Below are positions 5,172 through 40,100 of a stretch of DNA of 48,170 nucleotides, in pieces. The stretch's first letter is position 1; every line of letters starts with the position of its first letter. Under the pieces are notes generated by a model, which saw only the letters and a list, made by a program, of their open reading frames with translations, made no database searches and was not told the origin of the DNA. A program made the translations under genes and the position numbers. The DNA is from Christensenella sp. UBA6420. GTDB lineage: Bacteria > Bacillota > Clostridia > Christensenellales > DTU072. The DNA lies in NCBI GenBank assembly GCA_002439705.1, contig DJPE01000014.1, positions 321-48,490 of the forward strand, written 5' to 3'.

Positions 5172-7181
5172 TTATCTCCCTTTTCTCTTAAATACGATTA
5201 TTACGACGGCTATCCCCGCGGCGGCTACGACTACTCCGCCTATCACCGTGCCTAAGAACGCGGCAAGGCTTAATTTATGTCCGAATACAGTCACGCCTTT
5301 ACTTGCGGAAACGTTCGTCGTCGGCGTGGACTCGCCGCTTATTACCAAGCTGTAATTTCCGCTTTCCGTAAGAGTAAATTCTATCTTGTTGTTGATGAGC
5401 GTTATCTCGACTTTTTCTCCCGTGTCTGCGTTAAACAAAGCGTAGTTTCTTTCGTAAAACCCTACCGGCATATTCATGCTTATTTTCAGTCCGTTCGATA
5501 AACTTTTTTGCAGTTCTCCGTTATAGAAAACGTTAAGGGAAAAGTTTTCGGAAAAACCTTTGTCGAAACCGCTGTTTTTGAGAAAATCGTTAGAGTTACC
5601 GACGGAAGCGAAAGTAAGTTTAATTTCGTCGCCTTTTTTGTAGCCTGCAAAATCGCCGTCGTTTACGGTATAAGTCAAAGCCCCCGACAGATAAGTCGGA
5701 GCTTTTTCTATTACGTAAGAGAAACTGCTCTTTCCGCTCATAAGTTCGTCGATTTCCTTAAAGCAGTCATCAAAATCTTCGCTCGACGTAAGGTCGGAAG
5801 ATATAAGAACGTTGAGCTTTGAGAAAGCCGCATTAATCTTTTCGACGGCGTTTTCCGTATACCCGGAAAAATCGGCGTTACGGTAAGCAGCCGCATACGA
5901 TTTAAGTTTATCGGAAAAGTTTTTATCGTTGAAATAGTTGAAAGCGACGTGCTGAAAAGCTACGTTGCCGACTTTGTCGGTTGCGTTTATTACTACCGAC
6001 GACACGCCGTAACAGTCGAAATAAAGTTCGTACACCCCTTCCGACGATTCGGTGAAGACTTCGCCGCTGCCCGCCACCGTAATTTCTTTTATTCCGCTCT
6101 GCGTATCTCTCGCTTCCACCCTTAATTTTACGGGGTTTTCCTTCGTCAAGTCGTAGACAGCGGTGGCGTTCGTTATACTCGGAGCGTCGTTGTCGAAAGC
6201 GTCGGCAGTAATATTAAAGGTGGTTTCTTCCGATATATTGCCGCAGGCGTCGACGCTGTAAGCTCTTATCGTGTACTCAGCGGCTCTTTCAAGCGTAAAT
6301 ATGCCGTTATATTCGCTCTTTGCGTCGTTTATGAAATAGTACCTGTTTTTTATTCCGCTTTCGGTGTCGAAACCGTAGTTTATTTCCACTTCGTATCCGC
6401 TCGTAAAACCGTTTGTTTTTGTCAAATCGGATATAGGCGTGACGATAATTTCGGGTTTTGCGGGAGCGTTTCCGTCGAATTTATCGAAAACGTATTCTTC
6501 CACTATGCAGTTTTTCGCGTTGTCGAAGACGTAAAGGTAAACGGTTGTTTTGTCGGAGATACTCAAAGTTACCGCGTCTAAGTCGGTAACTTCGATTAAA
6601 GTATTCCTGTCGGTCGACAAAGAGTAGTATATATTCCCTCTGCCGCTGTGCAGGTCGGATACCCCGTTAAGGTTTATATTTACGTTGTAAACGGAACCGG
6701 TCTTATAATATCTGTCCATTCCCGCGTGCGTCGGAACTTCGGGGGCTACGTTGTCGCTTTTTACCGTTTTCGATACCGAACCGGATAATTCGCCGTTATC
6801 GTCGTAGGCGTACAACGTGACGGTGACCACTCCGGACTGACTGACTTTATACAAGACCGTTCCGTCGGAAGGAGCGGCAGTCTTAGTCCCTTCTATCAGA
6901 ACGTCGTCTACGGTGACGTCGATTTTGTAGTAGGGAGCCGAAGCCAAATCAAAAGTTATTTCCGCGTCTTTCGAATAATTCCCCGTATAATTTCCCCGTA
7001 TATAAGTTATCTCCCCGTCGGTCAAATCCGCGTCTGTTACGGCGGTGACGGTGGGTTCGGGCAGGTCTGCGGCAAAGCCGACGTCGGTCGAAAAGTTAAG
7101 TCCGGCGACGAAAACCGCTATCGCGAGAAAACAAAATATATTAAAAATTAAAACACTTCTTTTTATATTTAATTTATCCAT
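5172..7181 (-). CDS. Membrane-anchored surface protein with repeated Ig-like modules (hypothetical)
   Basis: 669 aa. N-terminal signal/anchor (VLIFNIFCFLAIAVFVAGL), C-terminal TM plus basic tail (FLGTVIGGVVVAAAGIAVVIIVFKRKGR), and a recurring D-x-[DN]-[AV]-AP linker (SDNVAPEVP, DGNAPAKPE, DNDAPSITN). No LPXTG motif seen. Confidence 0.55.
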   Translation of the reverse strand: MDKLNIKRSVLIFNIFCFLAIAVFVAGLNFSTDVGFAADLPEPTVTAVTDADLTDGEITYIRGNYTGNYSKDAEITFDLASAPYYKIDVTVDDVLIEGTKTAAPSDGTVLYKVSQSGVVTVTLYAYDDNGELSGSVSKTVKSDNVAPEVPTHAGMDRYYKTGSVYNVNINLNGVSDLHSGRGNIYYSLSTDRNTLIEVTDLDAVTLSISDKTTVYLYVFDNAKNCIVEEYVFDKFDGNAPAKPEIIVTPISDLTKTNGFTSGYEVEINYGFDTESGIKNRYYFINDAKSEYNGIFTLERAAEYTIRAYSVDACGNISEETTFNITADAFDNDAPSITNATAVYDLTKENPVKLRVEARDTQSGIKEITVAGSGEVFTESSEGVYELYFDCYGVSSVVINATDKVGNVAFQHVAFNYFNDKNFSDKLKSYAAAYRNADFSGYTENAVEKINAAFSKLNVLISSDLTSSEDFDDCFKEIDELMSGKSSFSYVIEKAPTYLSGALTYTVNDGDFAGYKKGDEIKLTFASVGNSNDFLKNSGFDKGFSENFSLNVFYNGELQKSLSNGLKISMNMPVGFYERNYALFNADTGEKVEITLINNKIEFTLTESGNYSLVISGESTPTTNVSASKGVTVFGHKLSLAAFLGTVIGGVVVAAAGIAVVIIVFKRKGR

Positions 7182-7394
7182 ATATAGTCCCCGGAAAAAT
7201 TCACAAGTATTATATCATACATTTTTTTGAGAGTCACGGTTTTGTAAATTTTTCCTGTCGTTATTATTTAATAATAAAAAGATTAAAATTTTCTTAAACC
7301 GTTTTCGACCGTCACACCCTGCGGGAAGCAACTTCATAGAATGTACTATACGCCGTATTTTTATCTTTCGGCGAAAACACAATATGGAGGTATT

Positions 7395-7700
7395 ATGAAA
7401 AAAATCATCACGGCGGTGTTGATAATCTCGTTACTTACGTTAAGTATAATCGCATTCACCGCCTGCGCTAAGACGGACGACGACGTAATAAGACTTAACG
7501 AAGTCACCCATTCGGTATTCTACGCCCCCCTGTACGTCGCTATAAACAAAGGGTACTTCGAAGAGTACGGAATCAAAATCGAGCTTACCAACGGCGGCGG
7601 CGCCGACAAGAGCATGACGGCGGTAATAAGCGGTCAGGCGGACGTAGGGCTTATGGGACCGGAAGCAGCCGTATATACGGTTACTTCCTTAGACTCGTAG
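7395..7700 (+). pseudogene. 5' fragment of an NMT1/SsuA-like ABC substrate-binding lipoprotein gene, truncated by prophage insertion
   Basis: GGAGG RBS then MKKIITAVLIISLLTLSIIAFTAC (lipobox), followed by VIRLNEVTHSVFYAPLYVAINKGYFEEYGIKIELTNGGGADKSMTAVISGQADVGLMGPEAAVY. The frame then runs 8 codons into phage DNA (TVTSLDS) and stops. The continuation is at 40098-40817. Confidence 0.85.
7662..7690. other. attL (host/phage junction)
   Basis: gaagCagccgtata at 7662-7675 matches gaagTagccgtata at 40083-40096, with a 9-bp identical core agccgtata. The phage arm tacggttacttc follows at 7676-7687. Confidence 0.75.
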
Positions 7701-7705
7701 GGTTT

Positions 7706-8578
7706 TTATTGCAAACTTTCCACTATTCTTACGATTTGTTTATTTCTTGCAACCCCTTTCGTTTTTACTGCGTAAAATGCGGTAGAGTAACTCTTAAATG
7801 CGTTAAATACCATTATCGCAAGCGTACCGAGAACGGTTACAACGCCTTGCCAATTCACGCCGAATACGAGCGACGAAGTAACGAGTGACATTACTATCGG
7901 AGCTATTGCAAACCAACCTATTTTACCGCCCGCTTTTGTAATAAACCATTTCGCGCCCGTCTTATCGGGTTCTTCGATAAGGTTATACAAACCCTTTTGT
8001 CGATATCCCGCTCCGTTCGATACGCTTAGTTCCACGAGAGAAATTTCAGGCGGTACCATTCGCTTTAACCGATACGCCATAATTCGTATTTTAAGCGGAG
8101 TTCCTTTCGGCAATTTATCGCCGACGGAATAACTTTTAACGTCATTTTGCAAAACGTTTTCTATAAACTTGCGACAAGCTTCCTTGCGCGCTTCAAAATC
8201 GGCAAGTATCTTTTCGTCCAACGCCTTTTGCGCCGCGGCAATATCTTTAATTCCTTCTATCGCGGCATCTTTCTCTTCGTCCGACTTTACGTACTTTTCC
8301 GTAAGTTTTGCGCGATTTATTCCGCTTTGACGGGTGCAATAAGTGATTACTATTCCGCCGACCCAGTTCACGATGGTAAGTAAACCGATATTCCAATTTA
8401 GAAGGTCGTTCCACTCCACCTTTATTTGACCGTTTTGACTCATAAACACGTTGCATATCACTACGACGATATAAAAGGCTACGGCGGAAAGGAAGTTTAG
8501 GACTACGTCTTTCGACGTAGCCTTTCCTTTTTTATCGTTTAAGTCTTTCGTTACTTCGTTAAACCGGAAGTCTTCCAT
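7706..8578 (-). CDS. Phage membrane protein: 2 TM, about 125-aa cytoplasmic coiled-coil-like domain, 2 TM (unknown function)
   Basis: 290 aa. Hydrophobic segments LSAVAFYIVVVICNVFM, IGLLTIVNWVGGIVITYC, IGWFAIAPIVMSLVTSSLVFGV and VVTVLGTLAIMVFNAF. 20-nt overlap with the upstream ORF. Last gene before attL. Confidence 0.6.
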   Translation of the reverse strand: MEDFRFNEVTKDLNDKKGKATSKDVVLNFLSAVAFYIVVVICNVFMSQNGQIKVEWNDLLNWNIGLLTIVNWVGGIVITYCTRQSGINRAKLTEKYVKSDEEKDAAIEGIKDIAAAQKALDEKILADFEARKEACRKFIENVLQNDVKSYSVGDKLPKGTPLKIRIMAYRLKRMVPPEISLVELSVSNGAGYRQKGLYNLIEEPDKTGAKWFITKAGGKIGWFAIAPIVMSLVTSSLVFGVNWQGVVTVLGTLAIMVFNAFKSYSTAFYAVKTKGVARNKQIVRIVESLQ

Positions 8579-9002
8579 AAGCTAACCTCCAAGCGTTTTT
8601 ATGTGAAAGCAAATCGTAAGTTCCCGTTTCTACGTCCTTATCCGCTCTCTTTTTGTAAACTTCCGAAACGGGTTCTATTACCATAGACGCCACGGCGCCG
8701 ACGAGCGATATCCCGCTTATCCAAGTCAATTCGTCCGCAAGATATCTCATAACGATAGAAATAATAAACACGACGAGAGACACCGACAGAATAATATTCT
8801 TCTTTGCAAAATCAAGCACTTTATCCTTGAACGCTATGAGCAGGAAAAAAATTATTATGTACCCGAAAAACGAAAGCGACGTACCGGCAGACTTGATATA
8901 GTTTCCTTTTTGCGTGGCAAACAAAACGAGAAGCGGAATCGCATAGACTACGAATGAGAGAACTTTATAGAACCAATATCTCGCTTTATTCGTTGCCAAC
9001 AT
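8559..9002 (-). CDS. Phage 4-TM membrane protein (holin-like by position only)
   Basis: 147 aa with four hydrophobic helices and a charged C-terminal tail. Overlaps both neighbours (17 nt and 20 nt), suggesting translational coupling. Confidence 0.55.
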   Translation of the reverse strand: MLATNKARYWFYKVLSFVVYAIPLLVLFATQKGNYIKSAGTSLSFFGYIIIFFLLIAFKDKVLDFAKKNIILSVSLVVFIISIVMRYLADELTWISGISLVGAVASMVIEPVSEVYKKRADKDVETGTYDLLSHKNAWRLAYGRLPV

Positions 9003-9720
9003 TTCCTATTTCCTCCAACTCTCGTTTAACGGTATCTACTTCCGCTACGTCTTTTGCGTTTTTAGCGTTTACTTTTTCTTCAAGTTCTCGTACTTGCTTA
9101 TATAAATTGACCAACACTTCGGCAGTCGGCGTTTTTGCCAACGCTTCCGCCGCACCCGGAGCTTCTTTCCACGCAATAGCCGCGCCTTTCAATAGATTTG
9201 ATAATTGCGCAGATAAGATTTCTTGCGTAGTCTGTAATTTATCGAGAGCAGCCGTATTGTCAACGTAATTATCGCCTACGACTTTCTTTACAACATCCGA
9301 TATGTAGTCTTTTAATTCCGATACCGTTTTTTCATTCAATACTTTTATAAAGTTATCTACGTTAAAGTCTCCGACCATCGCTTCTGCTTTGCTCGTTCTT
9401 TCTTTAAGCGCAGATAAAAACGCCGCGTATTGTTTGGCTTTTACGCCCGACTTAATAGCGGGAATAATACCCACCAATAAACCGAAAACGCCGCCTACCG
9501 CAGATATTATGAGCGGTAATACGTCGTTCTTAAATACTTCCGAGAAACTGTCCTCGGATACGGTATTTTCGGTATTATCGGAAGTAGACTCCGTATCCCC
9601 CGTAGTAGCTTCTTCCGCCGCATATACGGTCGTATGGGTGCCAATGCATAAGCTAACAGCCATTACTAAAAAAGCGCAAATTACGGCGACGTATGCGCCG
9701 ACAAATAGTTTCTTTCTCAT
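8986..9720 (-). CDS. Phage membrane protein: signal/anchor, acidic Thr/Ser/Glu-rich stretch, one TM, long alpha-helical tail (unknown function)
   Basis: 244 aa: MRKKLFVGAYVAVICAFLVMAVSLCIG..., then EEATTGDTESTSDNTENTVSED, then TM VLPLIISAVGGVFGLLVGIIPAI, then a Lys/Glu/Ala-rich helical region. Confidence 0.55.
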   Translation of the reverse strand: MRKKLFVGAYVAVICAFLVMAVSLCIGTHTTVYAAEEATTGDTESTSDNTENTVSEDSFSEVFKNDVLPLIISAVGGVFGLLVGIIPAIKSGVKAKQYAAFLSALKERTSKAEAMVGDFNVDNFIKVLNEKTVSELKDYISDVVKKVVGDNYVDNTAALDKLQTTQEILSAQLSNLLKGAAIAWKEAPGAAEALAKTPTAEVLVNLYKQVRELEEKVNAKNAKDVAEVDTVKRELEEIGNVGNE

Positions 9721-9735: not shown

Positions 9736-10179
9736 TTATAACGTAATTTTGTGTTCATGAATAAGCGGAGCAACCGTTTCTTTCCATTGTTTTAACTCTG
9801 CCACCGTCGCAGTTAGTGACGCTAAATCGTTTAGTATTCCGTCGACAGACGGGTATGCAATAAGAGCGGGAACGCTATCGTTTACAGACCTTATTTCTAT
9901 GGGCGTGCAAACTATTTTTCGTCCGTTTTCCGTTTGTATTTCAAGACATATTATGCCTTTTTTAAGCCGATTCCTTTTTATTGTCGCCTCGCCGTTATTT
10001 ATAGAAAAGGTTCCCAAAAATAATTTTTGAGAAGTCCTAACTATTAAATTTGCATTTTCTTGCATAAATCCGTCGATAACTACGACTATATCTCCGCTTT
10101 CTTCGATATTAAGAAAAGAACCGTCTATTAAGACGGCTCTTCCTGCATGTTCGATATACTTAAATTTTAGTGTATTCAT
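9736..10179 (-). CDS. Hypothetical phage protein downstream of the fibre gene
   Basis: 147-aa ORF, tightly packed in the late operon. I recognise no motif. Confidence 0.5.
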   Translation of the reverse strand: MNTLKFKYIEHAGRAVLIDGSFLNIEESGDIVVVIDGFMQENANLIVRTSQKLFLGTFSINNGEATIKRNRLKKGIICLEIQTENGRKIVCTPIEIRSVNDSVPALIAYPSVDGILNDLASLTATVAELKQWKETVAPLIHEHKITL

Positions 10180-16515: not shown

Positions 16516-16788
16516 TTATTCCTCGTCCAAACCGTAGTTGTCTAATTCAGCGGCAAAATACATTATCAATTCAAATTTATCATGAGCCAAGAAGCGCGTT
16601 TCTAAATCACATTCGTTACTGTACAAATATCTTATGTTGATATCATTGTCTTTGATAAATTGAGTGATTATCGGTATCCTTTCAGGATGACGTAATGCCG
16701 AAGTTCTTACCATATCAAGATTATCGTCCGGGTCGTTTATTGCATCAATAAGGTCTATAAAGTCTTGAATTTCTTTTTCAGTTATCAT
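16516..16788 (-). CDS. Conserved 90-aa acidic protein, copy A (unknown function)
   Basis: GGAGAGAG RBS then MITEKEIQDFIDLIDAINDPDDNLDMVRTSALRHPERIPIITQFIKDNDINIRYLYSNECDLETRFLAHDKFELIMYFAAELDNYGLDEE. Paralogue of 28403-28675. I moved the start to Met21 of the track ORF because the RBS and nucleotide conservation begin there. Confidence 0.7.
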   Translation of the reverse strand: MITEKEIQDFIDLIDAINDPDDNLDMVRTSALRHPERIPIITQFIKDNDINIRYLYSNECDLETRFLAHDKFELIMYFAAELDNYGLDEE

Positions 16789-16808
16789 TTTTCTCTCTCC
16801 ATAATATT
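16516..16808 (-). repeat. 293-bp direct repeat, copy A (partner at 28403-28695)
   Basis: Aligned by eye. Identical runs of about 37, 35 and 47 nt, for example gtcttgaatttctttttcagttatcatttttctctctccataatatt. Confidence 0.85.
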
Positions 16809-16919
16809 GTGTATTGAAAACCATGTTCGCTATCCAATAATTTAACAAAATATTTCTATTCTGTACATATTTTTAATGTGACCCTGAATATCAAGAGTTT
16901 CTTCACATCTCATAATATA

Positions 16920-17129
16920 TCACTCTGGACGGTCTTTTATCAATAATGCAAATGATAAAATTTGAGACTGAGTAAGTTCTTCATGATTATAAAGAAATGA
17001 CGCCATTGCTATTAATTTTTCATATGTTTGCAACATTAAGCAAACCCCCATAACAGCATTGTCGCTTACGCCTTTATTTTTTAGGAGCTTTATTACTTCT
17101 TTCCTTTTGCCATCAATATCAAAATTCAT
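16920..17129 (-). CDS. Small hypothetical protein (69 aa), unique to cassette A
   Basis: The ORF overlaps the upstream gene by 11 nt. AT-rich, CpG-poor composition like the rest of the cassette. Confidence 0.5.
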   Translation of the reverse strand: MNFDIDGKRKEVIKLLKNKGVSDNAVMGVCLMLQTYEKLIAMASFLYNHEELTQSQILSFALLIKDRPE

Positions 17130-17568
17130 TGCGCAATACCTCCTGCACTTTCATAATTATTTCTTCATTCCCTTCTATCGATATTTTTGCAAGCGGAACT
17201 ATTGAACCATATCCCAAATGATTATATAACACAAACGACTTATTGGTAAAGTCCCCATCTATACATTGTTTATGCCCAAGTCTTTTTATTGCTTGTTGCG
17301 AGATAACTGCATATTCGTATTTACTTAATACTATTTGAGTTTCTATCTCTTTTACTGGATTTATTGTGCGAGAAACAATTCTATCAACATACTCGTAAAA
17401 GTCTCTATTGACTTTTGAAATAAATTTAATACTAGCAATTTCATTTTGCCGTAAAGCCGCTTTATTTCCTATCTGCACAAGTTTTTCGACTTGCAATAAA
17501 CTATTTCTCTTGTCGGTAAACTTCCCGTCACCGTCCCTCGGATGGTCTTCTTCTCTGAACGTAGTCAT
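17119..17568 (-). CDS. HPRDGDGKF-motif protein A (149 aa, unknown function)
   Basis: MTTFREEDHPRDGDGKFTDK..., sharing only this N-terminal motif with 28665-29057. The start overlaps the upstream stop as TAATG. Confidence 0.65.
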   Translation of the reverse strand: MTTFREEDHPRDGDGKFTDKRNSLLQVEKLVQIGNKAALRQNEIASIKFISKVNRDFYEYVDRIVSRTINPVKEIETQIVLSKYEYAVISQQAIKRLGHKQCIDGDFTNKSFVLYNHLGYGSIVPLAKISIEGNEEIIMKVQEVLRNEF

Positions 17569-17877: not shown

Positions 17878-18336
17878 TTAAAAATCTCCCAATGCTCTGC
17901 TTCTGTTAAACGAAGGTCCTGCTCTCAAAACGGATTCGCCGATTTCGAGCCGTTCAACCGTTCTCGCAACTTTGTTCTTTTCGACTTCGGCAATCATCGC
18001 TATGCCCTGTCCCGCAAGGTTAAGCGCGCCCGCTATCGGGTCTATCATAAACGCAATACCTGCGGATACCGCGCTTTGCGCAATGCCGCTAATAGCCTGC
18101 GCTTTCGCTTGCTGTCTGTCGTTACCCGTTTTTACCGACATAAGCGATAATCCCGTATCTGCGACGCCTCTGAAAAATGCCGTAGCTTCCCACGCTTTCG
18201 CGACGGTTTTAATCGGGTTGTTGCCTTGTTCCTTTACCTTGCTCGTCGCTTTCGCTTCTTTTCTTTCTCCGTCTCCGCTCTCTTTATCCGAGTCCGTAGT
18301 AGGAACTCTTATAATAAGTTTGTAAGTATCTGCCAT
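17878..18336 (-). CDS. Hypothetical virion protein with a Gly/Ala-rich hydrophobic core (152 aa)
   Basis: AQAISGIAQSAVSAGIAFMIDPIAGALNLAGQGIAMIAEVEK resembles membrane-active or tape-measure-like segments, but the protein is far too short for a siphovirus tape measure. Confidence 0.4.
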   Translation of the reverse strand: MADTYKLIIRVPTTDSDKESGDGERKEAKATSKVKEQGNNPIKTVAKAWEATAFFRGVADTGLSLMSVKTGNDRQQAKAQAISGIAQSAVSAGIAFMIDPIAGALNLAGQGIAMIAEVEKNKVARTVERLEIGESVLRAGPSFNRSRALGDF

Positions 18337-23008: not shown

Positions 23009-24463
23009 TCATAAATACGGCACTATGTGAAGTCCTTTTTTAGAGTAATGTATCTTTGCCTTTTGGGTCGGTATCTTTTTCCCGTTTCTATATACAAAAC
23101 CTATTCGCTTGTCCGTCTCTATTATTTCTCGTATACCGTTTTGTTGTTCTGCTTGCACCCATCCACTACCGGCATATCTATCGATAATATTTTGAACTTC
23201 GCTTATACTTATCGTCACGATGCTTTTCCCTTGCATATACTCATTGCTTCCCGGTATATGCTTATTTTGTTTGCCGACGTGGACTTTTAGTGGATATTCT
23301 CCATTCTTTATTTTCGTTCGCAGAGTTTCTTTCGTGCGACTAAGAACGTTTATATGTTTATCAATTTCTTTCTTGCAACTATCGTTGATAAGTTCTTCAC
23401 CGTCGAATTCTTTGCATCTCCACGGATAAAAAGCTACTTTGTTTGCATTGCTATAATCGACGTATTTTTTGTAAAGCTCTTTGGCTTTCTTCCGTTGCTT
23501 TGCGGCTTCAATCGGGTCTATTTCTTTCAGACATATACTTTTCTTTATCGCTCGACGAGTTTCGCGCTCCAAATATCTTTGCGTTTTCTCGATATTGCGT
23601 TCTTTCTCTATCGCTTCTGCCGATATATGTATCGGTCCGTTCCCTTTACGATACGGAATAAGAAAATGCCGACAGTTAAAGCCGCTTATACAGCCGTTTT
23701 TATAAGTCTTTCCCGATTTGGTCGTATAATATATATCCGTAGCGTCGGAAAGCGGTCTGAATTCTTTTCCGTCGATTTTTCCGCTCCTGCCGCTTATGCT
23801 GTAAAGTTTTCCTTGCCACGGCTCGCAACGCTCCGAACAATTTCCGTGCGTAGATATCCAAACGAGGTCTTCTCCTTGCTCCGTCAACGCTCTAAGCTCT
23901 TCTTTTTGTCGCTCACTGCGTTCGCGCATCTCCGCTACGTTACGCAAACTTACGTTACTCGAATAGCTGTCCTTTGCTTCGGAATCTGCAAGCTCTCTGA
24001 ACGTTTTTTCTACTCTCTTTGCGTACGTTTCAGTGTATTCGTTTAACGGTTGAGCCGTTTCCCAATATCGCCCGACGGGTTCGACGATTTGTTGCAACTG
24101 CGGATTCGCTAACGTTATTTTCTCGGCGGCTTTTCTCTTTTGCTCGTCCGTTGCTTTCGGATTTCGTATCGTCACGACGTAAGGCAAAAGCCCTGCGTGT
24201 AGTCCAAAAAGTTCCGTCTTCGCTTTTCGATATTGTATCGTTGCGTAATAATAAAGCGATTTTTTAATTCTTTCTCGAAACTCTTCGTCTTCTATTGCGG
24301 GAGTCCATAGGTTTATCGCTCGCGATATTTGAGCGTTAACTTCAAGCCAAGCGCGATTGTATAAAACGGCGCTCTTAATGATTGCCCTTATCGCCGCTTG
24401 TGCTTTTTCCAAATCTAACGTCTGCGGAGAAAGTTCTTCGCGTTTAGTCGGTTTATTTATCAT
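23009..24463 (-). CDS. SPP1 gp7 / Mu F-like head morphogenesis protein with an extra C-terminal module of about 100 aa
   Basis: MuF-type core VWISTHGNCSERCEPWQGKLYS...GCISGFNCRHFLIPY. ATGA overlap with the portal gene. The C-terminal module is LKVHVGKQNKHIPGSNEY...IHYSKKGLHIVPYL. Confidence 0.8.
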   Translation of the reverse strand: MINKPTKREELSPQTLDLEKAQAAIRAIIKSAVLYNRAWLEVNAQISRAINLWTPAIEDEEFRERIKKSLYYYATIQYRKAKTELFGLHAGLLPYVVTIRNPKATDEQKRKAAEKITLANPQLQQIVEPVGRYWETAQPLNEYTETYAKRVEKTFRELADSEAKDSYSSNVSLRNVAEMRERSERQKEELRALTEQGEDLVWISTHGNCSERCEPWQGKLYSISGRSGKIDGKEFRPLSDATDIYYTTKSGKTYKNGCISGFNCRHFLIPYRKGNGPIHISAEAIEKERNIEKTQRYLERETRRAIKKSICLKEIDPIEAAKQRKKAKELYKKYVDYSNANKVAFYPWRCKEFDGEELINDSCKKEIDKHINVLSRTKETLRTKIKNGEYPLKVHVGKQNKHIPGSNEYMQGKSIVTISISEVQNIIDRYAGSGWVQAEQQNGIREIIETDKRIGFVYRNGKKIPTQKAKIHYSKKGLHIVPYL

Positions 24464-28402: not shown

Positions 28403-28675
28403 TTATTCCTCATCTAAACCATAATTGTCTAATTCGGCAGCAAAATCCATTATCAATTCAAATTTATCATGAGCCAAGAAGCGCGTCTCTAAATCACATT
28501 CGTTACTGTACAAATATCTTATATCTATATCATTATCTTTAATGAATTGAGTGACTATGGGTATTCTTTCAGGATGTCGCAAACAAGATATCCGCACCAT
28601 AATTAAACTATCTTCCTTATCGTTTATTTCATCAATAAGGTTAATGAAGTCTTGAATTTCTTTTTCAGTTATCAT
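28403..28675 (-). CDS. Conserved 90-aa acidic protein, copy B (unknown function)
   Basis: MITEKEIQDFINLIDEINDKEDSLIMVRISCLRHPERIPIVTQFIKDNDIDIRYLYSNECDLETRFLAHDKFELIMDFAAELDNYGLDEE. Same RBS context as copy A. Confidence 0.7.
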   Translation of the reverse strand: MITEKEIQDFINLIDEINDKEDSLIMVRISCLRHPERIPIVTQFIKDNDIDIRYLYSNECDLETRFLAHDKFELIMDFAAELDNYGLDEE

Positions 28676-28695
28676 TTTTCTCTCTCCATAATATT
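28403..28695 (-). repeat. 293-bp direct repeat, copy B (partner at 16516-16808)
   Basis: See copy A. The offset between copies is 11887 bp. Confidence 0.85.
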
Positions 28696-29057
28696 TTATA
28701 TCTGAAATCTTCATTACTTCCATACAGTTTCACACCATATATATACTCAAATGTATATATTACAAACTCCGCATACCCTTTTTTTTCAAGCTCTTGTCTT
28801 ACCGTACTTATTCTATCAAACACCGCGCTTTCGATGCGTAACTTATCGGCTTGATATTTGCTACCCGCTTCTTTTTGTCGATTTTCGTTTACGCGAGCGT
28901 TTATGCTATCGGATAATTCTCGTCTTTGTCGTTTGACTCTCTCGGCTACGGCTACGAGTCTATCTATATCGATCGCTCCCGACACGGATACTCCGTTCTT
29001 ATCGGTAAACTTCCCGTCACCGTCCCTCGGATGCTCACTCTCCCTAAATACGCTCAT
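28665..29057 (-). CDS. HPRDGDGKF-motif protein B (130 aa, unknown function)
   Basis: MSVFRESEHPRDGDGKFTDK..., then a sequence unrelated to protein A. GGAGG RBS. Confidence 0.65.
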   Translation of the reverse strand: MSVFRESEHPRDGDGKFTDKNGVSVSGAIDIDRLVAVAERVKRQRRELSDSINARVNENRQKEAGSKYQADKLRIESAVFDRISTVRQELEKKGYAEFVIYTFEYIYGVKLYGSNEDFRYKILWREKNDN

Positions 29058-29699: not shown

Positions 29700-31319
29700 C
29701 TATATTGCCATTTTGTGATGTAATTCGTTCAACGTTGTTATATTTGTTCTAAGACATTCATTCGGAAGATTTGCTCTTGCCATAGCTTCAGCTATGACCG
29801 GACATACTGCGTTGCCACATCTCGCCACTTGGTCTGCACGACTTATTGGTCTTCCGTTTTCATCACGGTCTATAATATAGTCATGCGGAAATCCCATGGC
29901 ATCATATAACTCTCTCGGCGTAAGCATTCTCAACCCTATGTCTGAAATAAAAAACAACTCTCCTTTTATTCTTAAAAGCAAGACCTCGTCTTCTCTAATA
30001 GAATATCCGCAAAAACTATTTAAAAGGTCTCTTATCATACTCCAGTTACCATATGCTTGCGAATTTTCGGCTTTAACAAGCAAGATGTTCGCCGCAGCAT
30101 ACTTCTCCCGTGCCATAACTGTCATTAAAGGTTCTTGTACGGACTGTCCTTTATCTGCCCCTCTAAAATCTACGAGATATGCTGCAATTAACGAATTATG
30201 GTCTATTGCCGTTACTGTCGGCAATGGCTCTGTTATTTCATTCCCATCTACTCCCGTATAATATTTTTGTATAAATGCAGAAACGACGCCTTCTCTTTCC
30301 ATTGTCGTTATCGTCGCAAGTGGTTTGCGAACGTCATGGTAATGTCCATCCCCGGAAAAATATTGTGTAAGATGTACCGCTGATAAATAATTCTTTGAAC
30401 CGGACGTTACCACAGGTAATGGTTGATTTACATCCGAACCTTTATCGTTAAAATTATTCACCATAATCGTCGGTGCTGTTGAATCAACAATAAATGGACT
30501 CTTTGACTTCAGTACAAATTTATCTACACCTAAAGCTATGCGTCTAAGCGTATTTGTCTTTAACGGACGCATACAATTAACTCCGTAAGTTTCTTTTAAT
30601 TCCTGTTTCGTAGCAAAAATCGAGTAACATGGTAATTTAAAATCGATGATATCCGCTGCAGCTTTCCACGGCTTTAATTTACCGCATCTAACTTCTATAC
30701 TATTAATCGGAGCATGTGTCTTTTTCGGGAATACAATTGGTTTGCCATCACACCGTGCGATAAGACAAAATCTCGTTCGCGTCGTTGGCGCACCATAATC
30801 GGCAGCACACAAATTCTTTGTTCCTATCTCATAACCCAAGTCCGAAAGTTGAGTCTTCCATTTATTGTAAGTTTGTCCCGCTTTGCTTTTTACAGGCTTT
30901 CCGTTCCGCACCGGTCCCCATGTTACAAATTCAGGTACATTTTCAAGCATTATGATATCAGGACGTACAGCCGCTGCCCAACGCAATACGACCCACGCAA
31001 GTCCTCTTATTTTTTTATCAACGAGCGCCGCACCCTTCGCACGCGAAAAATGTTTACAGTCGGGAGAAAACCACGCGAGACGTACATTTCGACCACGGCA
31101 AACTTCTTTCGGGTCAACAGCCCATATATCTTCACGATAATGTTCTGTGTATGGGTGGTTCATTTTATGCATCAAAATCGCACTTTCATTGTGATTTATC
31201 GCTATATCTACGGGATGCCCGGTCGCTAATTCAAGTCCTGTAGATGCGCCTCCGCCACCTGCAAAATTATCGACGATAATATCATCAAATATTCCTATCT
31301 GTTTGTTGCATCTTATCAT
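29700..31319 (-). CDS. DNA (cytosine-5)-methyltransferase, orphan, with a long variable region
   Basis: Motif I DNFAGGGGAS, motif IV FSPDCKHFS, motif VI ENVPEF, TTRTRF, motif X GNAVCP. About 290 aa lie between motif VIII and motifs IX/X. No adjacent restriction gene. Confidence 0.9.
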   Translation of the reverse strand: MIRCNKQIGIFDDIIVDNFAGGGGASTGLELATGHPVDIAINHNESAILMHKMNHPYTEHYREDIWAVDPKEVCRGRNVRLAWFSPDCKHFSRAKGAALVDKKIRGLAWVVLRWAAAVRPDIIMLENVPEFVTWGPVRNGKPVKSKAGQTYNKWKTQLSDLGYEIGTKNLCAADYGAPTTRTRFCLIARCDGKPIVFPKKTHAPINSIEVRCGKLKPWKAAADIIDFKLPCYSIFATKQELKETYGVNCMRPLKTNTLRRIALGVDKFVLKSKSPFIVDSTAPTIMVNNFNDKGSDVNQPLPVVTSGSKNYLSAVHLTQYFSGDGHYHDVRKPLATITTMEREGVVSAFIQKYYTGVDGNEITEPLPTVTAIDHNSLIAAYLVDFRGADKGQSVQEPLMTVMAREKYAAANILLVKAENSQAYGNWSMIRDLLNSFCGYSIREDEVLLLRIKGELFFISDIGLRMLTPRELYDAMGFPHDYIIDRDENGRPISRADQVARCGNAVCPVIAEAMARANLPNECLRTNITTLNELHHKMAI

Positions 31320-31524
31320 TTTTTCTTCTCCTTATTTTCTTAATTATCGCGTCCGTTATTTCTATTCCGGTAGTGATAATCACACATCCCGCTATCGGCA
31401 TATAAAGCCATAACATCGGTATATCTTTTATTTCTGCCACGTTAAGAATAAACAACGTGATTTCGATTAAGGCAAAGACTGCCGTAATAACGTTAAGAAG
31501 AATATCTTTCATTTTATTTTTCAT
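31285..31524 (-). CDS. Small membrane protein (2 TM), hypothetical
   Basis: 79 aa with hydrophobic segments ILLNVITAVFALIEITLFIL and MLWLYMPIAGCVIITTGI. Confidence 0.45.
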   Translation of the reverse strand: MKNKMKDILLNVITAVFALIEITLFILNVAEIKDIPMLWLYMPIAGCVIITTGIEITDAIIKKIRRRKNDKMQQTDRNI

Positions 31525-35657: not shown

Positions 35658-35867
35658 CTATTTCTTGAAAAGATATTCGAGGGTTAAGTCCGGGAAGTAA
35701 GTTTCGCGTATTTTAAACATTTCTCCGGACTTAAATTCACTTTTACCGAGCATTTTTAGATTAAGTCCGCGTCCCGTGATATTAAGCAACTTTGCTAATT
35801 CCGTTTGAGTAATCTTTCGTTCTTTTAGTTCCGAATATAAATTCTTATACATTTTCTTTAACTCCAA
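35658..35867 (-). CDS. Cro-like XRE-family HTH regulator
   Basis: 69 aa with ITQTELAKLLNITGRGLNLKMLGK. Met6 (start at 35852) is an alternative start. Confidence 0.6.
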   Translation of the reverse strand: MELKKMYKNLYSELKERKITQTELAKLLNITGRGLNLKMLGKSEFKSGEMFKIRETYFPDLTLEYLFKK

Positions 35868-36648
35868 AGTGTATTTTTATAAGCTCAATAAGAGCCTTGT
35901 ATTCCCTTCCGTATACGTTATTTGCGTGTGTTTCCTCTACTTTTGCGGCGAATTCATTAAGCTCGCCCGTAAAGCAACCGCAATTTACACTTAGTCCGCC
36001 ACTTTTGTTTTTAAATACAGTCGTTGTATCAATTCTTGAACCCATATTGGTAATCCAAAGAATATCGGCATCACGACAAACAAAAGCATCTCCACAAACC
36101 TTGGCATCACCGTGAACAGAACCACAGGCACGCACCCAAGCCTCACCGCAAACCTTGGCATTCCCATAAATCTGGGCATTGCCACAAATCCAAGCATTAC
36201 CGCAAATCTTAGCCTCACCGTGAACCCAAGCATCGCCGTGAACCAGAGCATAGCCGCAAACTTGAGCATTTCCGTAAACCCAAGCACTACCGAAAACCTT
36301 AGCATCTCCGTGAACCAATGCACTGCCGTAAACCCGAACAGTCTCGAAAACATGAGCATTGCCGCAAACTTGGGCATCTCCGTAAATTTGCGCGTTGTCA
36401 TAGACTTGAGAATTACTATAAACCCAAGCGTTGTCTCGAACCTTGGCATCACCATAAACCTTGGCATTGTCGTAAACTTTGGCATTGTCGTAAACCCAAG
36501 CATTGCCATATTGCGAAAGATTCTCTTCTTTCTCTATCCATCCGCCTAAATCGCCTTTCTTTACGTTGCCAAAGTCCCTGAGTGCTTCTATCTGATAGAA
36601 CGTGTGTCCGAGCCATACTTTTTTGTTTTCCGTTAAACGATATTTCAT
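35845..36648 (-). CDS. Hexapeptide-repeat (beta-helix/solenoid) protein, first gene of the leftward early transcript
   Basis: 267 aa. N-terminal KKVWLGHTFYQIEALRDFGNVKKGDLGGWIEKEENLSQ, then 25 consecutive hexads (YGNAWV YDNAKV YDNAKV YGDAKV ... CGDAFV CRDADI), then a C-terminal domain ...NCGCFTGELNEFAAKVEETHANN.... Confidence 0.8.
   Translation of the reverse strand: MKYRLTENKKVWLGHTFYQIEALRDFGNVKKGDLGGWIEKEENLSQYGNAWVYDNAKVYDNAKVYGDAKVRDNAWVYSNSQVYDNAQIYGDAQVCGNAHVFETVRVYGSALVHGDAKVFGSAWVYGNAQVCGYALVHGDAWVHGEAKICGNAWICGNAQIYGNAKVCGEAWVRACGSVHGDAKVCGDAFVCRDADILWITNMGSRIDTTTVFKNKSGGLSVNCGCFTGELNEFAAKVEETHANNVYGREYKALIELIKIHFGVKENV
36061..36510 (-). repeat. 18-bp-periodic coding repeat (25 hexapeptide units)
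   Basis: aa 47-196 of the ORF above. All three frames on both strands stay open here, which is a repeat artefact in the ORF track. Confidence 0.9.
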
Positions 36649-36811: not shown

Positions 36812-37108
36812 ATGGAAATAATTGAAATTAAAAAATATCTCAAAGACAATAAAATTACTTACGAAAAGTTGAGCGAACTATCCCAAGTTCCTTTAAACAC
36901 ATTAAAAAACATATTCAGCGGTCGTACGCCGACTCCCCGCATAGATACCATTCAATCCATCGAAAAAGCTCTCGGTTTGGATAACAACTCTTCTTCTGCC
37001 GCTAATACCATAAATACAGAGTTGCTTAATCTTATTCCACTGCTTACTCCTCAACAAGTTGAACAAACTGTCGACTTCGTTAAATTCTTACTTTCTAAAA
37101 ACTCTTGA
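36812..37108 (+). CDS. XRE-type HTH protein, repressor-NTD paralogue 1 (no peptidase domain)
   Basis: MEIIEIKKYLKDNKITYEKLSELSQVPLNTLKNIFSGRTPTPRIDTIQSIEKALGLD, plus a short tail ending DFVKFLLSKNS. Confidence 0.75.
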   Translation: MEIIEIKKYLKDNKITYEKLSELSQVPLNTLKNIFSGRTPTPRIDTIQSIEKALGLDNNSSSAANTINTELLNLIPLLTPQQVEQTVDFVKFLLSKNS

Positions 37109-37129
37109 CGTAGAAAAATTCTTTACTTT

Positions 37130-37447
37130 ATGGAAATAATTGAAATAAAAAAATATCTTAAAAACAATAAAATAACTTACAAAAAGTTGAGTGCCTTATC
37201 AGGTATCCCACTCACTACTCTTAAATATATATTCAGCGGTCGTACTTCAACCCCACGTATAGACACCATTCAGGCCATCGAAAAAGCTCTTAATTTTGAT
37301 AATCAGCGGGCTAAAATTGAACCTAATTTTATCTCCGACAAACAGCGTCTTCATTACCTTATAGAACAACTTCCCGACGAACTCGTTCTCCAAGTCTGTG
37401 ATTACATTTATTTTTTGCTTTCAAAAAATTCTCTATATAAACTTTAA
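37130..37447 (+). CDS. XRE-type HTH protein, repressor-NTD paralogue 2 (no peptidase domain)
   Basis: MEIIEIKKYLKNNKITYKKLSALSGIPLTTLKYIFSGRTSTPRIDTIQAIEKALNFD, with tail ...DYIYFLLSKNS. No obvious RBS. The ATG lies inside a copy of the operator segment. Confidence 0.65.
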   Translation: MEIIEIKKYLKNNKITYKKLSALSGIPLTTLKYIFSGRTSTPRIDTIQAIEKALNFDNQRAKIEPNFISDKQRLHYLIEQLPDELVLQVCDYIYFLLSKNSLYKL

Positions 37448-37462
37448 AGGAGCTAATTCCAT

Positions 37463-38062
37463 ATGGATATAACATTAATAAAAAAACATTTAAAAGCTAA
37501 TAAAATAACCTATGCTGAATTATCTGAAATGTCTGGCGTTCCTATTCAAACCATACAAAAAGTCTTCTCCGGCAATACTAAACATCCCCGCATAGACACC
37601 ATTCAGTCCATAGAGAAAGCTCTCGGTCTGGATAAGTCGTTCAGTATTTACGATATCCCCGGCATAGAACCTTTACCCGAATTCCGCTCGGTTCCTCTCG
37701 TCGGAACCATCGCTTGCGGCACGCCGACACTCGCAGAAGAGAATATCGAAGAATACGTCAAAATGAGCGACAACGTACGCGCCGATTTTGCTTTACGCTG
37801 CAAGGGCGACAGTATGATTAACGCTCGTATATTCGACGGTGATATCGTATTTATCAGACAGCAACCCGACGTCGAAAACGGCGAGATAGCAGCCGTTCTT
37901 ATAGAGAACGAAGCAACGCTTAAGCGCATATATAAATACGGCTCACGCCTTGAACTGCGCGCTGAAAATCCTACGTTTGCTCCGCTCAATTTCGAGGGCG
38001 AACAACTAAATGAAATTCGCATACTCGGAAAAGCCGTTGCTTTCATATCAACGGTTAGATAA
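37463..38062 (+). CDS. CI/LexA-like phage repressor (HTH plus S24 autopeptidase)
   Basis: The same HTH family as the two upstream ORFs, then the S24 domain: VPLVGTIACGTP, GDSM (catalytic Ser), and LKR with the Lys partner. AAAGGAG RBS. Confidence 0.85.
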   Translation: MDITLIKKHLKANKITYAELSEMSGVPIQTIQKVFSGNTKHPRIDTIQSIEKALGLDKSFSIYDIPGIEPLPEFRSVPLVGTIACGTPTLAEENIEEYVKMSDNVRADFALRCKGDSMINARIFDGDIVFIRQQPDVENGEIAAVLIENEATLKRIYKYGSRLELRAENPTFAPLNFEGEQLNEIRILGKAVAFISTVR

Positions 38063-38131: not shown

Positions 38132-38386
38132 ATGTCTATAACTAACGCAACGACTTTACGCAAGAGTCTATTTAGCTATTTGGATGCGGCAGCTGTAAAC
38201 GATGAAAAGATAATCGTGACGACAAAAAACGGAAATGCGGCTATTGTAAGCGAAGAATACCTGCGTAATTTAGAAGAAACTTGTTACCTTTATTCTATAC
38301 CGGGCGTCCGTGATAGCATTATCGAAGGCGTAAACACGCCTTTGTCAGAATGCTCGCAGATCGATTGGAAAAAGGTGCTGAAATGA
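38132..38386 (+). CDS. yefM: Phd/YefM-family antitoxin
   Basis: 84 aa. ...LRKSLFSYLDAAAVNDEKIIVTTKNGNAAIVSEEYLRNLEETCYL is typical of YefM. AGGAGG RBS. ATGA overlap with the toxin gene. Confidence 0.8.
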   Translation: MSITNATTLRKSLFSYLDAAAVNDEKIIVTTKNGNAAIVSEEYLRNLEETCYLYSIPGVRDSIIEGVNTPLSECSQIDWKKVLK

Positions 38387-38643
38387 GCTATACCATATTA
38401 TTCACAAAACAAGGAGAAAAGGACTTATTAAAAATAGCTCAAAGTAATTTTAAGTCAAAAGCATCCAGGCTTTTGGCTGTTCTTGAAGAAGATCCTTATT
38501 CTCCGCCTTGTGAAAAACTAATAAATTTAGATTCTACATTTTCGAGACGTATAAACATTCAACATAGACTCGTTTACAAAGTCTACGAAGAGGAAAAAAT
38601 CGTCGTAATTATACGAATGTGGACTCATTACAGTGACAATTAA
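38383..38643 (+). CDS. yoeB: YoeB/Txe-family toxin
   Basis: MSYTILFTKQGEKDL...FSRRINIQHRLVYKVYEEEKIVVIIRMWTHY is the YoeB signature. I moved the start to the ATG overlapping the antitoxin stop. Confidence 0.8.
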   Translation: MSYTILFTKQGEKDLLKIAQSNFKSKASRLLAVLEEDPYSPPCEKLINLDSTFSRRINIQHRLVYKVYEEEKIVVIIRMWTHYSDN

Positions 38644-38650
38644 TTCGGGA

Positions 38651-40051
38651 ATGAATGCTGCACTATATATTCGCGTATCTACGCTTGAACAAGCAACAAA
38701 AGGATATTCTCTCGAAGCGCAACGAGAGAGACTTGAAGCATACGCAAAAAGCCAAAACTACGAGATAACGGGCGTATACACCGACGACGGTTATTCGGGC
38801 AAAAACTTATACCGCCCCGCTATCGAGCGACTGATAGAGCACGTTAAACTCGGACTAATCAACGTCGTACTCGTATACAAGCTTGACCGTTTAACGCGTA
38901 GAGTCCGCGACGTACTCGAACTCGTAGAAGACGTTTTCGCGCCTAACAACGTTCAACTTTATTCTTTACAGGAAAATATCGACGTTTCATCGCCTTTCGG
39001 CCGCGCGGCGTTAAAACTCAACGCTACGTTCTCGGAACTTGAAAGAGAAACTATCGTCGAGCGTATGATTATGGGAAAAGAACAAGCCGTAAAACAAGGT
39101 AAGTATCTTTGCCCAGGTAAAGTTGCGCCTTTCGGTTACGTCCGCAACGCCGAGACGAAACAATTCGATATCGACCCCGTCCGCGCTGATATGGTAATAA
39201 AAATATTCGACCTTTACATACAAGGTTATTCCTTTCGAAAATTGTACGATTATTGTAAAGCGAATTTCAACGATTCGTATTTCAATAATCCTATGTGCTG
39301 TAAAAGTATTATTAATCGTACTATGTACACCGGATTTTTCACTTATAAAGGCGAGCTTTATAAAGGAACGAATTACTCCCCTATTATATCCTACGACACA
39401 TATCTCCAAGCGCAGGCTAAAAAAGACGCCAATAAAAGCGTACGCACACGCTCAACTTCTCCCTATCTGCTGACGGGACTTATCTATTGCGCTCAATGCG
39501 GAAATCGTTACGTCGGCAAAACTTATAAACATAACGAAGGGACCAAAGAATACGTTTATCGCGCGTACGGTTGTGCAGCGCGAGTAAAGAACGATAAGGA
39601 CTATCACCCTGCCAAATGCACTAACTATATACACACGGCGGAAGACCTTGAAAAAAGAGTAATCGACGTAATGAAGTCGTTGCAATTCGATGGGTTCGTC
39701 GCAGGAAAATACGTATCCGGCAAAATCGAAAACGTACGCATCGCTATATCTGAATTAAAAGAGAAAAAGGAAAAGTTACTCGATTTATACCTAAGCGATA
39801 TAATAGACAAAAATAGCTATGCAAAGAAAACGTCTGATATAGATAAAGAAATCGAAAAAAATGAAATTATAATAAAAGAAGAAGAAAAACGCGTTAAAGA
39901 AACGCCCACTATAACCATCGACTATTTGAAAGAACAAAGAAACCGCTTTGACGATATGTCGCAAACAGAAAAACGCAAATTTATGGCGGTTATTATAGAT
40001 AAGATAATTCTTAACGGCAACGATATTGTCGTAAAATTCAAAGTTAAATAA
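38651..40051 (+). CDS. Large serine recombinase (phage integrase)
   Basis: MNAALYIRVSTLEQ (catalytic Ser), resolvase domain with VLVYKLDRLTRR, recombinase domain, zinc ribbon CAQCGNRY...C, and a C-terminal coiled coil. The gene ends 37 bp from the att core. The track start (GTG 38633) is an alternative. Confidence 0.9.
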   Translation: MNAALYIRVSTLEQATKGYSLEAQRERLEAYAKSQNYEITGVYTDDGYSGKNLYRPAIERLIEHVKLGLINVVLVYKLDRLTRRVRDVLELVEDVFAPNNVQLYSLQENIDVSSPFGRAALKLNATFSELERETIVERMIMGKEQAVKQGKYLCPGKVAPFGYVRNAETKQFDIDPVRADMVIKIFDLYIQGYSFRKLYDYCKANFNDSYFNNPMCCKSIINRTMYTGFFTYKGELYKGTNYSPIISYDTYLQAQAKKDANKSVRTRSTSPYLLTGLIYCAQCGNRYVGKTYKHNEGTKEYVYRAYGCAARVKNDKDYHPAKCTNYIHTAEDLEKRVIDVMKSLQFDGFVAGKYVSGKIENVRIAISELKEKKEKLLDLYLSDIIDKNSYAKKTSDIDKEIEKNEIIIKEEEKRVKETPTITIDYLKEQRNRFDDMSQTEKRKFMAVIIDKIILNGNDIVVKFKVK

Positions 40052-40082: not shown

Positions 40083-40100
40083 GAAGTAGCCGTATACGTA
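40083..40100. other. attR (phage/host junction)
   Basis: gaagtagccgtata then the host sequence cgta..., with core agccgtata at 40088-40096. Confidence 0.75.

Follow-up and report, generated by a model that had tools for sequence, protein, structure and literature searches.

A conserved trio of membrane protein genes closing the late operon of a Christensenellales prophage: a candidate holin-type lysis module

We analysed a stretch of 48,170 nucleotides (nt) from Christensenella sp. UBA6420 (contig DJPE01000014.1, positions 321–48,490; hereafter the window), which carries a prophage whose late operon ends with three overlapping genes for membrane proteins, called here B, C and D. We propose that this trio is a novel three-component lysis module of the holin type, a reading to which we assign a probability of roughly 0.55. 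In the phage and in its relatives no endolysin is recognisable, an unusual situation for tailed phages infecting walled bacteria.

Genes, topology and conservation of the trio

A first-pass annotation, made from the letters of the window and a list of its open reading frames (ORFs), had described three ORFs overlapping by 17 and 20 nt. Our analysis returned exactly the same coordinates, on the minus strand: B and C overlap by 17 nt (8986–9002) and C and D by 20 nt (8559–8578). Each ATG is preceded at a distance of 7–10 nt by a good Shine–Dalgarno sequence (GGAG or GGAGG), and the Shine–Dalgarno sequences of C and D are located within the preceding gene. The position claimed for the trio, beside attL and downstream of the fibre genes where the late operon ends, is also correct: the trio follows the collagen-like fibre gene, and the stop codon of D is 30 nt from attL, the left end of the prophage. 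Scans for promoters and terminators around the trio gave nothing above chance and were no better than scans of shuffled sequences. The G+C content of the trio is 0.41–0.43, compared with a mean of 0.42 for the phage and 0.46 for the host. Public sequencing runs holding the sequence behaved as low-coverage DNA assemblies and yielded no information on transcription.

The topologies described for the 244-, 147- and 290-amino acid (aa) proteins hold in a hydropathy scan, which gives two, four and two plus two hydrophobic segments. In B, the segments are residues 5–23 and 68–86. The first ends in VYA|AEE, and in 8/8 orthologues the residue at position −1 is Ala, followed by acidic residues, while position −3 is occupied by a small residue (Ala, or Val in the window copy). 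Because this signal-peptidase motif is kept in all eight orthologues, we infer that B has a cleavable signal peptide (residues 1–34), and its cleavage would make mature B bitopic, N-out/C-in. The ectodomain of about 33 aa (residues 35–67) is variable and contains 10 acidic residues and 1 basic residue; it is accompanied by a conserved juxtamembrane motif, FSEVFKNDVLP, one Gly-rich transmembrane (TM) segment (68–86) and, on the cytoplasmic side, about 155 aa that form a helical domain.

Protein C has four TM segments in the hydropathy scan, is N-in/C-in by the positive-inside rule and has a charged C-tail in the cytoplasm, the last residues of which form the invariant motif HKNAWRLAYG. In protein D, the same scan finds two TM segments, a helical segment of about 140 aa and two further TM segments, with the N-terminus, the central helical domain and a C-terminal amphipathic helix all in the cytoplasm; the conserved motif RQSGINxAKxT is situated just after TM2. 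The start codon of D always falls in the AYG codons of the C tail and the Shine–Dalgarno sequence of D in its WR codons, and this embedding partly explains why the tail motif is invariant.

The trio was compared with eight related loci (L001, L002, L003, L061, L062, L064, L065 and L066), found on contigs that are phage genomes or prophages of about 31–34 kb with the same late-gene order as in the window. In seven of these loci the late operon is closed by A147–B–C–D, where A147 is a soluble protein encoded next to the trio, with order and overlaps kept; the eighth, L065, is cut just upstream of B, so that only B–C–D is visible there. The overlaps themselves are kept in 8/8 loci, measuring 8–29 nt for B/C and 20–32 nt for C/D. 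What comes after D varies among the loci. In the window and in L001–L003, it is an attachment site in an NMT1 gene, used with a serine integrase; in L062, two extra AT-rich ORFan genes are followed by the NMT1 gene, again with a serine integrase; in L061, L064 and L066, it is a tyrosine integrase on the opposite strand; and in L065, it is a strong intrinsic terminator, an AT-rich intergenic region and a same-strand early operon, with no integrase or repressor there.

The degree of conservation differs between the three proteins. C is 60–67% identical across the relatives, compared with 26–49% for every other late protein compared, and is thus the most conserved. Orthologues of B are 26–46% identical in seven related loci and those of D 38–49% in six; in L062, D is replaced by a remote homologue of the same architecture (hhalign probability of 85%). 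In L001 and L002, the trio is 96–99% identical to that of the window, although the fibre module has been replaced by unrelated genes. These features of conservation and coupling indicate that the trio serves a core late function of the phage and is not a swappable cargo of benefit to the lysogen.

The two extra genes of L062 (11470–12643 of that locus), between the trio and the attachment site, encode Lys/Asn-rich ORFan proteins of 207 and 189–191 aa. They have no significant Pfam match and look like a moron or defence insertion.

Searches for holin families, a muralytic enzyme and the identity of A147

Clear homology of the trio to known holin families, paired with an endolysin elsewhere, had been named in the first-pass annotation as a finding that would speak against its proposal, and no homology to such families was detected with Pfam, PHROGs or NCBIfam. 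B, C and D had no match to these families in Pfam even at E ≤ 0.1 or in PHROGs at E ≤ 0.01, and NCBIfam gave no holin match either. Families of other kinds were not matched significantly by any of the three proteins in Pfam, PHROGs or NCBIfam. The holin families considered were Phage_holin_1–8, 4_1/TcdE, 4_2, LL-H, BhlA/UviB, XhlA and SPP1 of Pfam, together with the PHROG holins. PADLOC returned nothing for C or D and, for B, only a weak match to the coiled-coil part of DndD (E = 4.9e-5, 20 bits). Nothing meaningful came from sequence searches of the PDB with profiles of the D, A147, C and 905-aa families and with the single sequences of B, the fibre and a 149-aa ORF. A tblastn search of C and D against the 50,697 phage records of INPHARED gave nothing relevant, and none of the three proteins had a meaningful match there.

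A word-index search of 5.8e9 proteins yielded 2 homologues of D, 1 of B and 26 of C, the last at 55–68% identity and with 42 invariant positions. Searches of IMG/VR and JGI metagenomes for relatives found none, and that of GTDB gave one locus only. Judged from these sequence comparisons, B, C and D are three new protein families. Analogies with GtrABC and with CidAB/LrgAB were considered and rejected, there being no Pfam match to GtrA (PF04138), GT2, LrgA or LrgB in the trio; for an analogy with RexAB, no profile match was found in support.

The earlier statement that no endolysin can be recognised in the phage had been made by eye, and it is confirmed at the level of profile hidden Markov models (HMMs) with Pfam and PHROGs. 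Pfam searches covering about 40 of the roughly 44 prophage ORFs found no peptidoglycan hydrolase domain (amidase_2/3/5, muramidase/GH25, CHAP/NlpC-P60, M15/M23, transglycosylase/SLT and glucosaminidase were looked for) and no wall-binding domain (LysM, SH3, PG_binding and CW_binding). There was no muralytic match with PHROGs on 30 prophage ORFs or with NCBIfam on ten late proteins, the trio among them. Pfam likewise found nothing muralytic in 104 proteins from the eight related loci; these matched only 20 Pfam families, mainly of integrase, helix-turn-helix (HTH), methylase and recombination proteins, plus a fibre-tip domain and CBM_5_12. Since the relatives are also without a muralytic match, the absence of a recognisable endolysin is, at the sensitivity of profile HMMs, characteristic of the phage family.

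With the exception of the collagen-like fibre, most of the tail and connector proteins of the phage are without a significant match in Pfam or PHROGs. For the capsid protein, there is only a weak match to an immunoglobulin (Ig)-like domain and none in the 50,697 phage records. The lineage is thus very divergent, so that a cryptic enzyme is possible, especially in the conserved 905-aa tail protein, which is the largest unexplored stretch that could conceal a muralytic domain. This protein is 38–42% identical in four relatives by tblastn, and its match to a 'fibronectin-like protein' encoded by a PinkBerry-associated phage is weak (23%). The unassigned ORFans, large tail proteins aside, are no longer than 172 aa or are located among the head–tail connector and tail genes.

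A147, present in all seven relatives whose sequence extends far enough, was an obvious candidate for the missing lysin because it is kept with the trio in these relatives, and its ORF had been listed by the first-pass annotation among those in which a hydrolase domain might be hidden. It proved to be an Ig-like protein of the fibre type instead. An exhaustive HMMER search at E ≤ 0.001 gave a family of 20 proteins, of which the 16 small ones were aligned; most members have a C-terminal IHxH motif. The AlphaFold2 (AF2) model is confident, with a predicted local distance difference test score (pLDDT) of 82.5 from a multiple sequence alignment (MSA) of 17 sequences, and shows an Ig-like beta-sandwich (residues 1–97) followed by a long C-terminal helix (112–144). 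In Foldseek searches of the PDB, no neighbour falls below E = 1e-3, and all are either Ig/FN3-type domains or neck and baseplate proteins of phages; BFVD gives 51 matches at E ≤ 1e-3, mostly tail-fibre, collagen-like, BppU and baseplate proteins. On the strength of this fold and these structural neighbours, we take A147 to be a structural accessory of the fibre type (tail-fibre or baseplate), and, judged by the model, it is not a hydrolase.

Two other identities of A147 were tried and rejected. An invariant Cys and HxH in an alignment of seven sequences had prompted the idea of a hidden small endolysin; these residues vary in the wider family, and the model is Ig-like. A repeat of the MBG/PKD type was suggested by phmmer matches to giant repeat proteins, most of which vanished with the family profile (weak matches to one protein remain).

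Structural searches with D gave a lead only: the BFVD neighbours of its low-confidence model are five uncharacterised phage proteins of about 300 aa. We also observed that Siphoviridae sp. cttDR14 and the source of A0A2Z4GU85/A0A2Z4GUH4 each have, in BFVD, an A147-like fold together with a full-length protein of about 300 aa similar to the low-confidence D model. As far as predicted models go, modules resembling A147 plus D may exist in other gut phages.

The lysis reading and its alternatives

According to the proposed mechanism, the trio would be made at the end of late transcription, in ratios fixed by translational coupling. C, with its four TM segments and charged cytoplasmic tail, would be the hole-forming core and is the best candidate for the holin subunit. 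B, with its N-out/C-in topology and large cytoplasmic helical domain, and D, with a cytoplasmic helical domain set between two pairs of TM segments, could each act as a co-holin or a timing regulator, and a B–C–D complex would permeabilise or depolarise the membrane at a set time. The wall would then be degraded by a phage enzyme that has escaped recognition or by host autolysins, or its synthesis would be blocked. Provided that the trio is a lysis module, we see even odds that the muralytic enzyme is an unrecognised phage protein, most plausibly the 905-aa protein or another ORFan; the release of host autolysins from control by membrane depolarisation is put forward more tentatively, and a block of wall synthesis would be an unlikely solution.

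The lysis reading is based on the consideration that the infection of a walled host by a tailed phage has to end with a breach of the membrane, and that the trio comprises the only membrane proteins of the late region and occupies the canonical position of a lysis cassette. In phages of Firmicutes, this cassette usually closes the late operon, downstream of the fibre genes. Besides the trio, the sole membrane protein among the 38 minus-strand ORFs scanned is a 79-aa protein of the early/middle region. C shows the features of the holin class, i.e., a small membrane protein with at least one TM segment and a charged cytoplasmic C-terminus, B and D being larger than usual.

Several observations weigh against this reading. 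The trio has no recognisable endolysin gene next to it or co-transcribed with it, although such a partner is the usual criterion for a holin, and no homology to any holin family according to Pfam and PHROG. B and D are much larger than typical holins, with most of their mass in the cytoplasm, and the conservation of C is unusually high for a holin. The AF2 model of D is all-helical and of low confidence (pLDDT 49.9, from an MSA of three sequences), so that structure prediction lends the trio no support. Finally, a location at the prophage end is also typical of morons.

The closest parallels to the trio are the lysis cassettes of actinophages (those of Gordonia phages, and LysF1a/LysF1b of F1-cluster mycobacteriophages), in which up to four tandem holin-like TM-domain genes have been documented (PMC9671378). 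As in the trio, two to four different, non-duplicated genes for TM proteins with 1–4 TM segments and novel topologies stand in tandem at the lysis locus. LysF1b of the F1-cluster mycobacteriophages, which is genetically required for efficient lysis, has a single TM domain in N-out/C-in orientation (PMC13056207), the topology that mature B would have. The differences are that the actinophage cassettes always come with lysin A and usually with lysin B, whereas the trio has no recognisable lysin, that there is no sequence similarity, that B and D are larger and have big cytoplasmic helical domains, and that the host here is a Firmicute of the class Clostridia.

In phage T4, the proteins T, RI and RIII resemble the proposed arrangement in that one hole-former and two regulators time the permeabilisation (PMC12162936 for T). 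Unlike the trio, their genes are dispersed, the endolysin E is their partner, T has one TM segment and a large periplasmic domain, RIII is soluble, and no homology is seen. Among Firmicutes, XhlA–XhlB–XlyA of Bacillus PBSX is a lysis block at the end of a late operon with more than one membrane protein, and the TcdE-type (Phage_holin_4_1) holins of Clostridia are multi-TM proteins similar in size to C (PMC6200909). These systems adjoin an amidase, however, and the trio has no Pfam match to either family.

One alternative that places the trio outside lysis altogether regards it as a superinfection-exclusion, abortive-infection or other lysogen-benefit membrane system, comparable to RexAB, Sie, Cor or Llp, and this had also been one of the options of the first-pass annotation. 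The trio adjoins the attachment site, a common site for morons, and resembles no holin family; like lambda RexA/RexB, SieB, Cor and Llp, it would combine in a prophage a 4-TM protein of about 145 aa with larger partners, C (147 aa) matching RexB in size and shape. The large cytoplasmic domains could serve as sensors, and exclusion genes of the Cor and Llp type likewise adjoin receptor-binding genes. The behaviour of the trio in the relatives counts against exclusion. Defence genes are usually variable, whereas the trio is present in all relatives found and is retained in L065, where the junction holds no lysogeny module; it does not co-vary with fibre or receptor-binding genes, as the identity across the fibre swap in L001 and L002 demonstrates; and the moron-like genes of L062 are inserted after the trio, not in its place. 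In addition, the trio belongs to the late operon and not to an immunity region, it is tightly coupled there with no separate promoter signal above chance, its G+C content is native to the phage, and PADLOC gave no real match. We therefore consider an exclusion function improbable.

Even less probable is a role of the trio in morphogenesis, fibre assembly or DNA delivery (ejection). Its genes come directly after the fibre genes and A147 and are conserved with them, the ejection proteins of short-tailed phages have hydrophobic segments, and the phage has no gene of tape-measure size. On the other hand, the signal peptide predicted for B in 8/8 orthologues implies that B is inserted into the membrane of the producer cell, polytopic 4-TM proteins are not known as virion components of tailed phages, and the trio, as noted, changes independently of the fibres. 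Least credible of all, and not supported by our data, is the option of a host with an absent or atypical wall, for which membrane disruption alone would suffice. Christensenella stain Gram-negative though they are Firmicutes, and the neighbouring host surface protein (5172–7181), which had been cited in favour of this option, does have a TM segment followed by KRKGR at its C-terminal end and no LPXTG motif. That description of the protein stands, but one TM anchor says nothing about the wall; the host belongs to the Christensenellales, and cultured Christensenella have LL-diaminopimelate peptidoglycan and are reported to be susceptible to vancomycin and piperacillin.

The remaining alternative overlaps with the lysis reading and contradicts only its endolysin-free form: the trio would be the holins of an ordinary lysis cassette whose endolysin, of a new or very divergent fold, has merely gone undetected. 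The near absence of profile matches among the tail, connector and capsid proteins, the last without a match in INPHARED, marks a lineage divergent enough for this to happen. Endolysin catalytic and wall-binding domains are, however, shared with bacteria, and few phage domains are as a rule easier to detect. The prophage ORFs searched and the proteins of the relatives showed none, the only soluble protein of the conserved terminal block is the Ig-like A147, and the unassigned ORFans other than the large tail proteins are either small (at most 172 aa) or located among the connector and tail genes. We regard this account as possible but doubtful.

The first-pass annotation had put forward an endolysin-independent, membrane-based lysis module as one of its options. 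Of this, the membrane lysis module is the best supported reading, while the words "endolysin-independent" depend on negative searches in a phage most of whose late proteins are ORFans. It is rather unlikely, in our estimate, that this family of tailed double-stranded DNA (dsDNA) phages lyses a walled Firmicute through a three-protein membrane complex with no muralytic enzyme of its own, by unleashing autolysins or blocking wall synthesis; the strong conservation of C would fit binding to a host target in such a case. Precedents exist in the amurins, the single-gene lysis proteins of small phages, and in LytA of pneumococcus: they show lysis that needs no muralytic enzyme from the phage, or that is aided by host autolysins triggered by membrane collapse. 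To our knowledge, amurins are found in phages with single-stranded DNA or RNA genomes and not in tailed dsDNA phages, and pneumococcal phages still encode their own lysin.

For tailed phages of walled bacteria, the pairing of a holin with an endolysin is regarded as universal. A phage family that truly had no endolysin would reveal that dsDNA phages have a second way to lyse their hosts. It would also indicate a host target, or a control of autolysins, open to exploitation by a small membrane complex. Should a cryptic enzyme exist instead, it would bring a new muralytic fold and three new holin-type families from Christensenellales of the gut and rumen. No phage biology of the Christensenellales was described in the literature searched, and under either outcome the trio offers a compact, conserved entry point for experiments.

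The prophage, its host and further features

The prophage is about 32.4 kb long, extending roughly from 7676 to 40090 of the window, and looks intact; the positions of its main features are collected in Table 1.

Table 1. Main features of the prophage, with positions in the window.
Feature	Position	Strand	Remarks
attL	7662–7687		sequence GAAGCAGCCGTATATACGGTTACTTC; 9-nt core AGCCGTATA common to attR
Protein D, 290 aa	7706–8578	−	last gene of the late operon
Protein C, 147 aa	8559–9002	−	
Protein B, 244 aa	8986–9720	−	
A147, 147 aa, soluble	9736–10179	−	directly upstream of B
Collagen-like fibre, 1086 aa	10402–13662	−	
Conserved tail protein, 905 aa	13721–16438	−	no Pfam, PHROG, NCBIfam or PDB match
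79-aa protein, two TM segments, strongly basic C-tail, early/middle region	31285–31524	−	overlaps the start of a C5-methylase gene
Large serine recombinase (integrase)	38633–40051	+	Pfam Resolvase, Recombinase, Zn_ribbon_recom
attR	40083–40106		same 9-mer core as attL

The insertion target is a host gene for an ABC substrate-binding protein of the NMT1 type, whose N-terminal part is found at 7341–7700 and C-terminal part at 40248–40817. The 9-nt core AGCCGTATA occurs at 7667 (attL) and 40088 (attR). The serine integrase gene is convergent with the late operon across attP. The reconstructed attP has the sequence GAAGTAGCCGTA-TA-TACGGTTACTTC, an imperfect inverted repeat flanked by the convergent stop codons of D and the integrase. 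On the late-operon strand this repeat forms a hairpin of about 21 bp (−23.6 kcal/mol for a stretch of 107 nt) with no clear U-tract; in the excised phage, it may also serve to terminate late transcription.

The late operon on the minus strand comprises the small and large terminase, portal, MuF-Ntox50 protein, scaffold, capsid, connectors and tail proteins, and continues with the 905-aa tail protein, the collagen-like fibre, a 64-aa ORF, A147, B, C and D. It is tightly packed, with gaps of 10–58 nt from the 905-aa gene onward. In the MuF-Ntox50 protein (23009–24463, minus strand), a minor capsid domain of the MuF/SPP1-gp7 type is fused to a polymorphic-toxin domain, Ntox50, at the C-terminal end (Pfam E = 1.2e-23). 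A putative tube-like protein of 270 aa is followed by a conserved protein of 152 aa (17878–18336, minus strand) whose hydrophobic stretches are rich in Gly and Ala. There is no gene of tape-measure size, and the tail of the virion may be short or unusual in design.

A two-gene unit occurs twice in the prophage, in the tail module (16516–17568, minus strand) and near the packaging genes (28403–29057, minus strand). The ORFs 16516–16848 and 28403–28723 are 84% identical in protein and 86% in DNA, while the upstream ORFs, 17119–17568 and 28665–29057, have in common only the N-terminal motif (E)EHPRDGDGKFTDK. The copy in the tail module is absent or shorter in the relatives.

In the early/middle region, the 79-aa protein has a shape like that of a class II holin and a weak match to a SieB PHROG (phrog_33766, E = 0.004), and its role could be either in exclusion or, as a second factor, in lysis. 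An early protein of 267 aa (35845–36648, minus strand) is a beta-solenoid with YdcK- or hexapeptide-like repeats that strongly matches PHROGs of unknown function (E = 3.6e-93); owing to its repeats, long spurious ORFs appear on both strands. Three paralogous HTH genes stand in tandem (36812–38062, plus strand), and their products are alike in the N-terminal 60 aa or so. Two of them are short copies, of 98 and 105 aa, and the third is a full LexA-like S24 repressor of 199 aa. Just upstream of the serine integrase gene and overlapping its start is a pair of overlapping genes for a Phd/YefM antitoxin and a YoeB/ParE-type toxin (38132–38643, plus strand).

The host is an uncultured Christensenellales bacterium, whose DnaE is 95% identical to those of the rumen metagenome-assembled genome (MAG) RUG11213 and of a 'Christensenella sp.' MAG. 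This DnaE-type polymerase (43421–47728, minus strand, 1435 aa) contains an insertion of about 260 aa, roughly at residues 304–563, which is also present in the 95%-identical MAG (L004) and absent from Christensenellales relatives at 83%, 69% and 65% identity (L006, L008 and L016).

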